Shown here piece after piece: positions 50 to 32,871 of a stretch of DNA of 42,749 bases. Source of the DNA: a virus. The notes beneath the pieces were generated by a model, which saw only the letters and a list, made by a program, of their open reading frames with translations, did no database searches and was not told where the DNA came from. Within the stretch, counting starts at the first letter, position 1. The number at the start of each line of letters is the position of its first letter. The translations under genes and the position numbers were made by a program. The stretch is taken from IMG/VR virus record IMGVR_UViG_3300014208_000028, positions 157,123 through 199,871 of that record. The stretch is one strand, 5' to 3'.

Positions 50-235
50 CTATCGTCCCGCCCGCTTGAGGGCAGCGCGGGCCGCAATCATGCCCGGAGT
101 GTCAATAATGCTACCTGCAAAATGGATGCTCGTCCGCTCCTGCTCGCGTAGATTCAATTCCAGCGCGTCGGCGAGGTCTTGCTTGATGCTCAGCAGCTTG
201 GCAACGTCAGATTGAGCCTGTTCAAGTTTCGTCAT
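50..235 (-). CDS. Small accessory protein, member of local paralog set ending LADALE...AALKRAGR
   Basis: AGGAGG RBS; C-terminus shared with 244..579, 981..1427 and 1446..1682. Confidence 0.75.
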   Translation of the reverse strand: MTKLEQAQSDVAKLLSIKQDLADALELNLREQERTSIHFAGSIIDTPGMIAARAALKRAGR

Positions 236-11472: not shown

Positions 11473-12106
11473 ATCTTACCTCGCAAGTACTACAGTCGTG
11501 AGTACGACAGCATGTTTTTTGAGGGGCCAAATTTAGACAAGCTTCTTTAGCCTCTACTGCTCTATAATTATCATTTATTTTTCTACCGTGATAAGGAGTT
11601 AGAATATCCACATAACGATGATATTTTTTAACCTCATGCTCATTACGTACCATCATACGTAATTTAACATTAGAAGTTTTATACTGTCTTATCCATTTAG
11701 GGACGCCACTATTAAAATCTAAACTATAATTAATAGTTAAGTTTTTATACTTATTATATTTTTTTACAAATTCTGGCTGTTTAGTAATAGCTTTCAATCT
11801 TAATCCTGCTAATGCAGAATCGTCTAATATATTTTTAATGTCATCGTCCATCCAAGGTTCATAATCTCCAAAGCTAAACATTCTTAGCCCGCCCATTTTA
11901 TTTAATTTAACTAATGTAGAATCTTTTAATCTTAATATTTCGTGATTATAATGAGTCTCATAAAAACCTTTCGCTCTATATTTTTTTCTACGACTTTCTT
12001 GAACATAGCAATAACTACAGGGATTACCTGCTTTTAATCGCGGGCAAATAGTTGATAGATCTAAACTCCTATATGTTTTACTATTATCTTGTATGCAATT
12101 TATCAA
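11456..12106 (-). CDS. Gp88-like / radical-SAM-like Fe-S protein
   Basis: ICPRLKAGNPCSYCY, LRMFSFGD, ITK, YSLD; C-terminal CCRTHDCSTCEVRC. Confidence 0.55.
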   Translation of the reverse strand: MINCIQDNSKTYRSLDLSTICPRLKAGNPCSYCYVQESRRKKYRAKGFYETHYNHEILRLKDSTLVKLNKMGGLRMFSFGDYEPWMDDDIKNILDDSALAGLRLKAITKQPEFVKKYNKYKNLTINYSLDFNSGVPKWIRQYKTSNVKLRMMVRNEHEVKKYHRYVDILTPYHGRKINDNYRAVEAKEACLNLAPQKTCCRTHDCSTCEVRCGYKN

Positions 12107-12177: not shown

Positions 12178-13266
12178 ATGAAATTAGTAGTAAATATTAA
12201 GTTACTTCCAACTTCTGAACAACACACTATATTAAAAACTACCTTAGAAGTAGCAAACGACGCCTGTAATTATTTATCTAGTGAGGCCTTCAAAAGTAAA
12301 ATTTTTGGGCAATATAGTTTACATAAATTATATTATTTAAAAATCAAAGAAAGATTTAATCTTTCTGCACAAATGGCAGTCCGTTCTATAGCTAAGGTGG
12401 CTGATACTTATAAAAAAGACCATAAAACTATTAGAAAATTTCGTACTTACTCCGGCCAACCTTATGACGATAGAATTTTAAGATTTACTGAAAATCAAGT
12501 TTCTATCTGGACCGTAAACGGTAGAATTAAAATTCCCTATCAAATGGGAGAATACCAACGAAAACTATTTCCTTTTCGTAAAGGAGAGTCTGATTTATTA
12601 TACATCAACAATATTTTTTATCTAACTTGTGTTTGTGATATTGATGACCCTGAATTAATTAAAACTTCTAAAGTATTAGGAGTAGATTTTGGAATAGTTA
12701 ATATTGCCGTAGATTCTAATGGAAAAGAATATAGTGGTAAAGCTATTAATAGAAATAGATGTAAATATTCTCATCGTCGTAAAAATCTTCAGAAAAAACA
12801 TACTAGGTCAGCTACTCATAAACTTAAGAAATTATCTGGTAAACAAGCAAGATACCAAAAAGATGTAAATCATTGCATTTCTAAAGCTATCGTGTCAGAT
12901 GCTAAACGCACTTCTTCTATAATTGCCTTAGAGAATCTCAAAGGAATTACCAAGAAGGTTACGGCTAATAAGCAACAGCGGTCACGATTGTCTAATTGGG
13001 GATTTTATCAATTAAGAACTTTCATAGAATACAAAGCTAAACAGGCAGGTATTCCCGTAATATTAGTAAATCCTCGATATACCTCTCAAGAATGCCCTAT
13101 GTGTAGACACATCTCTAAATCTAATAGAAAAACTAGAGATAGTTTTATTTGTGTTAAGTGCGGTTTCGCTGGCCCTGCTGACACAATCGCAGCACTAAAT
13201 ATTAGTGCTAGGGCTGTCGTCAATCAGCCGATGGTAGCGAACACTTGTTTAGCTACAAACTTATAA
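12178..13266 (+). CDS. tnpB: RNA-guided endonuclease TnpB (IS200/IS605 family), no tnpA nearby
   Basis: RuvC D (GVDFG), E (IALENL), D (ADTIAALNI); CPMC/CVKC zinc finger. Confidence 0.95.
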   Translation: MKLVVNIKLLPTSEQHTILKTTLEVANDACNYLSSEAFKSKIFGQYSLHKLYYLKIKERFNLSAQMAVRSIAKVADTYKKDHKTIRKFRTYSGQPYDDRILRFTENQVSIWTVNGRIKIPYQMGEYQRKLFPFRKGESDLLYINNIFYLTCVCDIDDPELIKTSKVLGVDFGIVNIAVDSNGKEYSGKAINRNRCKYSHRRKNLQKKHTRSATHKLKKLSGKQARYQKDVNHCISKAIVSDAKRTSSIIALENLKGITKKVTANKQQRSRLSNWGFYQLRTFIEYKAKQAGIPVILVNPRYTSQECPMCRHISKSNRKTRDSFICVKCGFAGPADTIAALNISARAVVNQPMVANTCLATNL

Positions 13267-24322: not shown

Positions 24323-24555
24323 TCTATCTCCTTTTTTATATACTTATCTATATATGATTTAGCTTCTAAATCTCCATGTCTATGGTAGTACTCTAATATA
24401 ATTTTTTCGGCCTCATTTAAAAGCCGCGATTTTAAAAGCCTTACTTGTTCTAATAATATTTCTACATCAACATCTACTAAAGAACTTAAAATAGAGTTAG
24501 ATCCAATAATATCTCCTTCTATCTCTTTCAATTCTTCATCAGTTATAATATTCAC
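24319..24555 (-). CDS. Hypothetical protein
   Basis: GTGA/ATGA overlaps. Confidence 0.55.
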   Translation of the reverse strand: MNIITDEELKEIEGDIIGSNSILSSLVDVDVEILLEQVRLLKSRLLNEAEKIILEYYHRHGDLEAKSYIDKYIKKEIE

Positions 24556-24731
24556 TTATTACCGCCTAAATATGTTTCTACATCTACGTAAGTTTTAACA
24601 TCTGCTGTAGGCTCCAATTTTATTTCTTTATAAATACTATTTAAAGTATTATTTATATTCTCTAATAGAATTAACATTTTCTCATTTATATAATCTTTTC
24701 TCGCCTCTCGCGCCGAAGTTTGTAAATCCAT
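24552..24731 (-). CDS. Small protein (not in ORF track)
   Basis: AAGGAG RBS, 59 aa MDLQTSAREARK... Confidence 0.6.
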   Translation of the reverse strand: MDLQTSAREARKDYINEKMLILLENINNTLNSIYKEIKLEPTADVKTYVDVETYLGGNK

Positions 24732-24827
24732 ATTAATCTCCTTTAAAATAAATAGCTAAAAACTATTAAATTGTAGCCTAAAATTAAAAATTGGTTGAGG
24801 GTTAATAATTAAATGAACACTTTGACT

Positions 24828-24906
24828 AAAAAAGAAGAAGAGAAGATCCTGAAAGGAAAATGTCTTTTGCAAAGGAGGTTTGAAAATGACGACTTCTCTT
24901 CTTCAA
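24828..24906 (-). ncRNA. Candidate antisense sRNA with two anti-RBS/anti-AUG elements
   Basis: Promoter motif 24911-24919; perfect 12-bp IR 24834-24845/24893-24904; U6 tail; 47-nt loop. Confidence 0.6.
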
Positions 24907-24910
24907 TTAT

Positions 24911-24919
24911 TATATAACA
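24911..24919 (-). promoter_or_regulatory. Recurrent phage promoter motif TGTTATATA
   Basis: Intergenic, 6 nt before the sRNA stem. Confidence 0.6.
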
Positions 24920-24946
24920 TATTATTTTAGAAAATTGCGGACCAAA

Positions 24947-25180
24947 TTATCTAAGTAATTTACTAGACCATTTAGGATAGACTACATGACAAAGAGTAAC
25001 AGTATCTTCACAACTTATATTAAGTCTCATAGATAATTTAGATATAATTCTATCTATAGGGGTTTTCTTACTTATCTCATTCCTTATAAAATCTCCAACA
25101 TATAACCTGGCCGCAGTTACTATTGCCTCTAATTCAATAATATCCCCATTTAAAGTTCTACTAGCTATGCCTACTTTCAT
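24947..25180 (-). CDS. Hypothetical protein
   Basis: ATGA overlap. Confidence 0.6.
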   Translation of the reverse strand: MKVGIASRTLNGDIIELEAIVTAARLYVGDFIRNEISKKTPIDRIISKLSMRLNISCEDTVTLCHVVYPKWSSKLLR

Positions 25181-25592: not shown

Positions 25593-25601
25593 TATATAAC
25601 A
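25593..25601 (-). promoter_or_regulatory. Recurrent phage promoter motif driving the tRNAs
   Basis: TGTTATATA about 20 nt upstream of the first tRNA. Confidence 0.65.
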
Positions 25602-26439: not shown

Positions 26440-27537
26440 TTAACCTTCTCGTATAACTTTAACAAATTTACAGGCCTTGGCCCTAATTTTTTGAGGATAT
26501 TGAGGATGTCCTCCAAAACACCTACAATCACTTAATTTTGCTCTAACTAAAAGTATTTTGTATTTCACATTTTTAGGTATAAATTCTAGTAGGCCGCTTT
26601 CACTGTCTGCTAAGTGTAATCCAGGCCCGCACTCACCTGTAAATGACTCATTCCAATCAGGACAAATAATCTCTTTTCTCGTAATATAATTTATTTTTCC
26701 AGTATAGAAATCTGTCCCATTATATTTTACTGCTTTATAAAAATATCCGTACCCTTTTACAATTCTAATTCCTTTTAAAGCGCACCAATCATCTATATTT
26801 GATGGATATTTCGGATTAATAATTATGGCTTTATTAGAAATTAATTTTATTTTAGAATTTCCATATTTAATTATAGACGTATAATCCCTAGCCTCGACAT
26901 GTGCGCTTTCCCAAGCCACGACATGTGCGCTTTCCCAAGCCTCGACATGTGCGCTTCCCCTAGCCACGACATGTGCGCTTCCCCTAGCCTCGACATGTGC
27001 GCTTTCCCTAGCCTCGACATGTGCGCTTTCCCAAGCCTCGACATGTGCGCTTTCCCAAGCCACGACATGTGCGCTTTCCCAAGCCTCGACATGTGCGCTT
27101 CCCCTAGCCTCGACATATGCGCTTCCCCTAGCCACGACATGTGCGCTTCCCCTAGCCACGACATGTGCGCTTTCCCTAGCCTCGACATGTGCGCTTTCCC
27201 AAGCCTCGACATGTGCGCTTCCCCAAGCCACGACATGTGCGCTTCCCCTAGCCACGACATGTGCGCTTCCCCTAGCCACGACATGTGCGCTTTCCCTAGC
27301 CTCGACATGTGCGCTTTCCCAAGCCTCGACATGTGCGCTTTCCCAAGCCACGACATGTGCGCTTCCCCAAGCCGCGACATGTGCACTTCCCCTAGCCTCG
27401 ACATGTGCGCTTTCCCAAGCCTCGACATGTGCGCTTCCAGAAACTAATATCCTACTATCTCCAGCAGCTATAATACTTCCTTCATTAATTTCATGATACC
27501 CTGTATCATATCTTTTTATATCACTCATCTTTAACAT
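26440..27537 (-). CDS. Octapeptide-repeat (probable beta-solenoid) protein with C-terminal CGPGLH domain
   Basis: 23 x AHV(E/V)A(W/R)(E/G)S, then YKAV...CGPGLHLA...KIRA. Confidence 0.85.
   Translation of the reverse strand: MLKMSDIKRYDTGYHEINEGSIIAAGDSRILVSGSAHVEAWESAHVEARGSAHVAAWGSAHVVAWESAHVEAWESAHVEARESAHVVARGSAHVVARGSAHVVAWGSAHVEAWESAHVEARESAHVVARGSAHVVARGSAYVEARGSAHVEAWESAHVVAWESAHVEAWESAHVEARESAHVEARGSAHVVARGSAHVEAWESAHVVAWESAHVEARDYTSIIKYGNSKIKLISNKAIIINPKYPSNIDDWCALKGIRIVKGYGYFYKAVKYNGTDFYTGKINYITRKEIICPDWNESFTGECGPGLHLADSESGLLEFIPKNVKYKILLVRAKLSDCRCFGGHPQYPQKIRAKACKFVKVIREG
26887..27438. repeat. 24-bp tandem repeat, about 23 copies
   Basis: Unit gcc(t/a)cgacatgtgcgctt(t/c)ccc(a/t)a. 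Confidence 0.97.
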
Positions 27538-28997: not shown

Positions 28998-29046
28998 AGT
29001 TATATAACAAAAAATAATGTTTTTTGGCGGGCCAAAATGTATAAAT

Positions 29047-29197
29047 AAAAAAGAGAGGGGTGCCTCTCTAATTGATTCCTAGAAATCCTTCCTTACTTTG
29101 TAAGGATTTCTTGCCCGTCGAATTTTGGGGCACTCAATTGGAGGAGATGTAAGGAACACTCCAAAAGTTTTGGTAGAGAGGAATCACTTCTCTACAT
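29047..29197 (-). ncRNA. Candidate about 150-nt multi-hairpin RNA with own promoter and terminator
   Basis: Promoter 29202-29210; four hairpins; terminator AGAGAGG-CACC-CCTCTCT plus T run; long-range complementarities. Confidence 0.7.
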
Positions 29198-29220
29198 TAT
29201 TTATATAACAAATAATTTAA

Positions 29221-32487: not shown

Positions 32488-32654
32488 CCTTATTTACTCC
32501 TTTTGTCATGCTTATGCATAAACTATATACCTAAAAACATTATACTATACTTCAAACAATTTTTTAGCGGGCCGAAAATTTTTCGGTCCTTAATTAAAAA
32601 GAAAACGAGTCTTGGCAATATCTATATACCACAATATTTTAATTTTTTTCATAT

Positions 32655-32739
32655 AAATAAGAAAATGCTCGGAAGGGAAACTTGTTCGTCCGCATCCGAC
32701 CGCATTTTCTTTTATCGCAAACTCAAGGTGTCTCTTCAT
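32655..32739 (-). ncRNA. Candidate small RNA (5' single-stranded leader plus hairpin)
   Basis: Promoter motif 32744-32752; 10-bp IR 32659-32668/32702-32711 plus 5-bp inner stem. Confidence 0.5.
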
Positions 32740-32871
32740 ATATTTTATACCATATTTTTTAAGAAATTTTCATTTAATCTTATACTAAAAAATTAGCTGT
32801 AAAGCACCGCTTTACTTCACAACTAATTTTTACCCGACATGAAGTAGTTGAAAGCTATCCACTACTCCAAT

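Follow-up and report, generated by a model that had tools for sequence, protein, structure and literature searches.

A promoter, a clamped hairpin and a U tract ahead of the DNA-replication genes of a 200-kb phage: a probable leader terminator with CCUCC in its loop

Genetic context of the element

The window, the whole stretch of DNA analysed here, is the final 42.7 kb of a 199,871-bp virus record. The genome is 31% G+C, 264 of about 303 genes are on the minus strand and, in a crude gene map, about 93% of the sequence lies inside ORFs of at least 55 codons. The element occupies a 215-nt gap between the minus-strand genes 25180-24947 and 24731-24552, neither of which belongs to a known family. 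Its features are given below in the direction of transcription, using window coordinates, as throughout unless genome positions are specified.

24947..25180, minus strand: upstream gene of 77 aa, without a known family; 43 nt separate its stop codon from the stem
24949-24947, minus strand: stop codon of the upstream gene
24940-24935, minus strand: -35-like hexamer, part of the promoter 24909..24940
Between the -35-like hexamer and TG, minus strand: A/T spacer, 15 nt
24919-24918, minus strand: TG of the extended -10 promoter family
24916-24911, minus strand: -10 hexamer, followed by six bases to the stem
24904, minus strand: predicted transcription start, the first G of the stem, from the register with the promoter family
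24904-24893, minus strand: 5′ arm of the clamp stem, an all-purine 12-mer
24892-24846, minus strand: loop, 47 nt, in the predicted folds
24890-24862, minus strand: main inner hairpin (predicted fold), with CCUCC as a 5-nt apical loop
24878-24874, minus strand: CCUCC, inside the loop
24857-24847, minus strand: small second inner hairpin (predicted fold)
24845-24834, minus strand: 3′ arm, all pyrimidine, the exact complement of the 5′ arm
24833-24828, minus strand: U6 tract, +72 to +77 relative to the predicted start
24732..24827, minus strand: spacer of 96 nt from U6 to the next gene, containing an SD at 24744-24738
24552..24731, minus strand: next gene, 59 aa, no known family, ATG at 24731, first gene of the downstream block
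24886..24930, plus strand: 14-codon micro-ORF behind AAAGGAGG, 7 nt and ATG, the mirror of loop half 1

The downstream minus-strand block is tightly packed and includes genes for a UDG-family protein, a DnaB-like helicase and DNA polymerase I. The first gene of the block begins at +174 from the predicted start, with the U6 tract between them and less than 250 nt from that start. A plus-strand gene (12178-13266) interrupts this replication block. Between 12107 and 13563 the convergent junction shows no recognisable terminator, and for the minus-strand genes that resume at 12106 there is no preceding copy of the promoter family described below. The position of the plus-strand gene inside the block suggests that some promoters outside the family probably exist.

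On the upstream side, a tRNA-Ile gene (anticodon TAT) and the gene for a CAT-anticodon tRNA (tRNA-Met) lie 7 nt apart on the minus strand in the segment 25414-25601. A weak copy of the promoter motif near 25601 starts a unit composed of these two tRNA genes and two small genes, followed by the element, and the hairpin and U6 of the element are the only terminator-like signal able to close it. The hairpin and U6 are likely to act as the terminator of the upstream gene 24947..25180 too.

The promoter belongs to a phage family

The original prediction placed a minus-strand promoter motif before the hairpin, and this motif is real. A matrix built from 12 copies identified 25 family sites in the genome, against 0-1 in Markov-shuffled controls. 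With a matrix from which it was left out, the copy at the element scores 36.1 bits, a value reached at only 8 of 399,638 genome positions. Its TG, -10 hexamer, A/T spacer and -35-like hexamer are in register with the other family copies, which are of the TGnTATAAAAT type, and two of these copies were aligned to it. Family sites are intergenic and almost all co-oriented with the genes. An SD and ATG follow many of them at a distance of 10-40 nt, and some stand directly before tRNA genes, including those at genome 21501 and 47389. By the family spacing, which has a purine 15 nt downstream of TG, transcription would start at the first base of the stem, at about 24904. Several family transcripts open with a 5′-terminal hairpin, and 5′-paired starts amount to 28%, against 15% of random positions.

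No family promoter is present in the spacer 24732..24827, where the best score is -16 bits, and no other family promoter scoring above 6 bits was found on the minus strand from 24919 to 4582. K-mer enrichment over all 88 intergenic gaps recovered only the family promoter and the T runs of terminators, and no second promoter motif. The first 2000 nt of the window are 48.5% G+C, compared with about 31% elsewhere. At 1824 (minus strand) a strong family promoter opens into a GC-rich stretch that has no Rfam match.

The usual order in the genome is a terminator and then a promoter, as at genome 57977/57953 and window 32826/32752. Short ORF-less terminated units headed by family promoters were observed at window 29009-29210 and 32532-32826, and at genome 56020-56107. 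The ORF-less units headed at window 29210 and 32752 and at genome 56107 precede a separate family promoter, which at 56107 is promoter-like by eye only. The units at 29009-29210, 32532-32826 and genome 56020-56107 look like stand-alone small RNA genes, and the phage would therefore appear to have both stand-alone and leader-type short units.

The hairpin and its terminator character

The stem, loop and run of six U described originally were confirmed. The clamp stem consists of 12 bp that are 100% complementary, including 5 G-C pairs, and is followed immediately by U6. The 77-nt RNA has a predicted folding energy of -22.3 kcal/mol (z = -3.3), which was equalled by none of 200 shuffles, and the total energy of the hairpin is -21 to -22 kcal/mol across folds. 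The loop alone is weakly structured (-6.3 kcal/mol, z = -1.4). The leader past the hairpin has no significant fold (z = -0.9), and the clamp is retained when the full leader is folded. If pure A/T repeats are set aside, the clamp is the sole spaced perfect inverted repeat of at least 12 nt in the 42.7-kb window. In a genome-wide scan for hairpins that abut a T run, the element has the longest perfect stem among those with a large loop. An RNA of about 77 nt, bounded by a promoter and a terminator as first proposed, is the literal reading of this DNA.

The stem and U tract are those of an intrinsic (Rho-independent) terminator, but the loop of 47 nt is well outside the typical range of 3-8 nt. 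The canonical terminators of this phage have stems of 7-14 bp and loops of 3-7 nt, and the energy of the element's hairpin is at the strong end of these. The U/T run is specific to the minus strand: in the plus-strand direction AATTATTA, and no T run, comes after the hairpin. Antiterminator pairing was sought by inspection for both arms, including pairing of the 5′ arm with the pyrimidine tracts of the loop, and none was found; nor was a leader peptide found in the leader of the element. By inspection, a triplex does not fit. A minus-strand 38-codon ORF beginning with TTG (24872-24756) lacks an SD and was rejected. In searches with Rfam covariance models only two tRNAs reach the gathering score, and nothing meaningful was found in 24650-25000 at E values up to 10.

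Anti-start sequences in the loop

The loop had been described as the complement of two back-to-back translation start regions. This description suits the first region well, since the complement reads AAAGGAGG, 7 nt and an ATG at 24886, a textbook start. The second is poor: a weaker GAAAGGAAA abuts the ATG at 24860, and a start site is weak when the SD-like run is placed in this way. The two ATGs, said to open no more than a few codons, open 14 and 7 codons, respectively. The apparent duplication of the loop halves stems partly from the arms of the main inner hairpin and from a short direct repeat.

The motif AAGGAGG followed by 5-9 nt and ATG occurs 16 times in the genome; 13 of these occurrences open ORFs of at least 60 codons, and the other three, which include that of the element, open short ORFs. 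Micro-ORFs of 20 and 22 codons lie behind a perfect AAGGAGG-spacer-ATG at genome 75591 and 29747 (minus strand), respectively, and the product of the 22-codon micro-ORF resembles a single hydrophobic helix.

There are 106 copies of CCTCC on the minus strand of the 200-kb genome, and about 0.02 would be expected per 47 nt. In predicted folds of minus-strand intergenic RNA only two copies are unpaired, that of the element and one other. In the element, CCUCC is exposed in the predicted 5-nt apical loop, as in an anti-SD sRNA, and 9 nt at this loop match the canonical 3′ end of bacterial 16S rRNA. The anti-SD content of the loop is unusual, though it was picked out after being seen. The record itself opens (genome 1-150) with roughly 15-nt tandem repeats that also contain CCTCC, possibly a terminal repeat or a packaging-related array.

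Pairing of the loop with start sites

The original prediction was of an antisense RNA that silences two specific start sites. Duplex energies were computed against 360 candidate phage start regions, and for the null the reverse complements of real start sites were themselves matched with the other start sites. For half 1 of the loop, 28% of the nulls do as well or better; for half 2 the figure is 55%, and for the whole loop 22% of concatenated null pairs do as well or better. The best partner of half 1 is the start of gene 50..235 (-23.8 kcal/mol), so that the partial match suggested earlier does exist, yet it is inside the null. The start region of this gene is very GC-rich and pairs promiscuously with pyrimidine-rich probes. 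The best partner of half 2 is a 72-codon minus-strand gene starting at genome 29467, with which it would form a 15-bp duplex over the SD, 12 of the pairs being exact, again within the null. Start-codon-centred targets above chance, the lack of which the original prediction had named as refuting it, were thus not found within the phage, and the two-target proposal is not supported there. Mismatch scans of each 23-24-nt loop half over both genome strands gave nothing beyond Markov controls and no extended match.

The start of the element's own downstream gene ranks 216-305 of 360 for pairing with the loop, which does not point to sequestration of that SD in cis. Promoter-proximal genes pair slightly better with the loop (p about 0.02), a difference attributed to stronger SDs at the first genes of operons.

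Outside the phage, the exact 22-mer was found once in 185,579 species genomes, in a Chloroflexota contig of 59% GC. The exact 20-mer has 23 matches in JGI metagenomes, mainly in two repeatedly sampled gene families together with scattered single contigs. The contigs with 20-mer matches are 45-67% GC, with one at 36%, and most matches fall at ordinary start sites of real ORFs. These exact matches mark generic starts, in genes unrelated to each other and in contigs that are GC-rich, unlike the 31% GC phage, and among those in the species genomes and JGI metagenomes there is no pointer to a low-GC host.

A second ORF-less unit

A second promoter-driven RNA without an ORF is encoded on the minus strand at genome 54704-54793 (L003:1211-1300). 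The -10 of its promoter overlaps the stop codon of the gene upstream. In the predicted fold (-31 kcal/mol, z = -3.1) a 5′ hairpin comes first, then CUCCUCCUU in single-stranded form, and finally a terminator stem of 14 bp with its U run. Only 13 nt separate the U run from the SD of the next gene, too few to accommodate a further promoter, and this implies read-through. The two anti-SD units, at 24919 and genome 54793, are not homologous beyond low-complexity purine/pyrimidine runs.

Interpretation of the element

The element is probably (we would give this a probability of about 0.55) an intrinsic terminator, or attenuator, placed close behind its promoter in the 5′ leader of the genes for DNA replication. 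From the host-type promoter (24940-24909) an RNA would be started at about 24904, and its first 71 nt would fold into the 12-bp clamp around a loosely folded loop. The U6 tract would then make part of the polymerases stop, releasing an RNA of roughly 75-77 nt with its two ends paired together, which should confer stability. Polymerases that read through would continue into the genes from 24731 downwards, producing an mRNA whose 5′ end is protected by the hairpin. Transcripts arriving from the upstream tRNA/small-gene unit would end at this hairpin and U6 as well. We infer termination, its partial efficiency and any regulation of read-through that a phage factor or the timing of infection might exert.

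This reading draws on the non-random stem, loop and U6, on the strength of the hairpin and the promoter, on the similar build of the unit at genome 54793 and on the arrangement of the promoters. As no other family promoter was found downstream, the replication genes appear to be reached via the hairpin and to depend on transcription through it, which argues for a terminator that is leaky or regulated. The original prediction had overlooked that no further family promoter precedes the next 11-20 kb of replication genes, and this makes a leader terminator acting in cis likelier than a free-standing sRNA gene. Against an attenuator, the loop is far larger than the 3-7 nt that are canonical for this phage and may lower the efficiency of termination; moreover, as neither antiterminator pairing nor a leader peptide was found, no switching mechanism is visible. 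The plus-strand gene 12178-13266 also counts against it, since it makes at least some promoters outside the family probable; if such promoters served the replication genes, the unit would be a free-standing RNA gene.

The hairpin could instead be a plain terminator of the upstream tRNA/small-gene unit that doubles as a 5′ stabiliser, in which case promoter-initiated transcripts would be terminated weakly and the short RNA would be an unimportant by-product. We consider this unlikely. The 43 nt that separate the stop codon of 24947-25180 from the hairpin are a normal distance for a terminator, 5′-terminal hairpins open several family transcripts, and the genome is compact (about 93% in ORFs of at least 55 codons by the crude map). 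However, a terminator followed by a promoter is the usual order here, the enrichment of 5′-paired starts (28% versus 15% at random) is modest, and both the large loop and the rare CCUCC would be left unexplained.

The anti-start content of the loop might be explained if the released RNA were a trans-acting sRNA, with CCUCC, and possibly the second pyrimidine tract, blocking the SD and start regions of host or phage genes, or if it mimicked the 3′ end of 16S rRNA. The motif is rare on the minus strand and is predicted to be displayed in a 5-nt apical loop, half 1 mirrors a perfect start of the kind that marks real gene starts in 13 of 16 cases, and the second promoter-driven RNA of the phage exposes CUCCUCCUU. 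Paired ends and a U tail would suit a stable sRNA, and anti-SD motifs in loops are a well-established feature of sRNAs such as those of the cuckoo family (PMC4615179). We nevertheless regard this function as rather unlikely. Pairing with phage start sites is at chance (28%, 55% and 22% for the two halves and the whole loop), without an extended match in the genome, and the exact public matches are generic, coming from contigs of 45-67% GC when the phage is 31% GC. Half 2 makes a poor complement to a start site, the better pairing of promoter-proximal genes would be expected from the stronger SDs of first genes, and a general anti-SD RNA would strike the phage's own mRNAs too. Silencing in trans is thus unsupported by these results.

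A broader form of this idea, which we consider doubtful, is that at least two short RNAs of the phage, end-clamped or bounded by a terminator and coming from the element and from genome 54793, mimic the 3′ end of 16S rRNA and act in trans as general anti-SD regulators or decoys. If so, once accumulated they might damp the translation of host or early-phage mRNAs with strong SDs, or titrate a factor that recognises the anti-SD tail of the ribosome.

Known type I toxins generally have 18 residues or more. A sense/antisense pair of the type I toxin-antitoxin (Ibs/Sib-like) kind, with a functional plus-strand micro-ORF (the 14 codons from 24886, or the 34-codon ORF 24813-24917, which is present as originally noted) and the minus-strand RNA as its antisense regulator, is very improbable. 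The start motif matches those of real genes in quality, the 14-residue product is mostly hydrophobic and the minus-strand RNA would be fully complementary to the micro-ORF start. Against this, 14 residues fall short of the usual toxin length, the locus has neither a family promoter nor a terminator on the plus strand, a generic promoter scan is at chance (17 found, 18.5 expected), and 264 of the 303 genes are on the minus strand. As for the 34-codon ORF, the nearest SD-like sequence is a GAGGG as far as 11 nt from the ATG.

Returning to the leader terminator, the element would, if this reading is right, mark the point of entry into the replication genes of an orphan groundwater phage of 200 kb, and be a sequence-predicted addition to the premature-termination RNAs recently measured in phage 5′ UTRs. 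The 77-nt RNA is a concrete candidate for regulated read-through or for action through an exposed anti-SD loop. A promoter followed by a terminator is a layout already known from other large phages, and the element is a reasonable annotation rather than a surprise.

Comparison with known systems

In lambda pR′-tR′ (6S RNA) and in gates of the N/Q type, a long operon is expressed only when polymerases from a constitutive promoter get past a terminator close to it. The element resembles pR′-tR′ in having a promoter closely followed by a terminator ahead of a long operon, and the parallel is conceptual. Unlike the lambda gates, no antiterminator protein and no nut/qut-like or put-like element was identified here, and regulated read-through is a deduction from the layout.

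In the c4 antisense RNA of P1/P7 (Rfam C4), pairing with a ribosome-binding region has been proposed for two short segments that are exposed. The element likewise predicts a phage RNA of roughly 77 nt encoded upstream of genes in the same transcription unit, and two exposed segments have been proposed for it too. It differs from c4 in having no C4 match in Rfam, and its loop shows no preference for the start of its own downstream gene. The 3′UTR sRNAs of the DapZ/MicL type are transcribed from an internal promoter and share the terminator of the mRNA; they are bacterial and Hfq-dependent, and have defined seeds and targets. The promoter of the element is similarly placed at the end of the upstream gene, with a terminator common to that gene, and the resemblance is one of layout.

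RsaE/RoxS are sRNAs of Firmicutes with C-rich loops. With these and with the cuckoo/CcsR family the element shares a pyrimidine anti-SD motif in a hairpin loop of a short terminated RNA. The cuckoo/CcsR sRNAs carry CCUCCUCCC in each of 2-4 hairpin loops (PMC4615179). In the element CCUCC is confined to one of the two inner hairpins, both of which have weak A-U stems, and the modules are enclosed within one clamping stem rather than set side by side; there is also no Rfam match and no target above chance.

The closest measured parallel is an RNA of about 71 nt in phiKZ, delimited by promoter P112 and terminator T102 (Putzeys et al. 2024, PMC10914365). Full-length, long-read transcriptomics of phiKZ and five other virulent Pseudomonas phages revealed 42 terminators inside 5′ UTRs, most of which give a read-through mRNA or a dominant short RNA of less than 250 nt, and for the 71-nt phiKZ species premature termination exceeded 90% and was confirmed by northern blot (PMC10914365). 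The element shares with this type a promoter and an intrinsic terminator within 250 nt, upstream of the genes served, in a large lytic phage. The short RNA and the read-through mRNA with a common 5′ end, measured in phiKZ, are here predicted from sequence. The phages are unrelated and, unlike in phiKZ, the hairpin of the element starts at +1 and has an unusually large loop with an anti-SD motif.

Relatives and sequence variation

BLAST of the locus against 50,697 phage records gave no match, and the exact stem pattern was not found in viral contigs. Protein-seeded scans of viral contigs with four neighbouring genes returned only non-syntenic matches of 26-35% identity. In a search of 5.8 billion proteins the best non-self match was 45%, on a contig of 798 bp. 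No relatives with sequence variation, such as would show covariation in the stem or conservation of the plus-strand frame, were found in the collections searched. Samples that contain the phage include JGI 3300037810 and ENA ERZ27249449. Contigs of the same phage from other samples, two of which were read (L005 and L006), are identical across the element. They apparently differ from the window only near 26440-27537, where loss of register in an ungapped comparison suggests an indel. This segment contains a 365-aa minus-strand ORF made up almost entirely of tandem 8-residue repeats.
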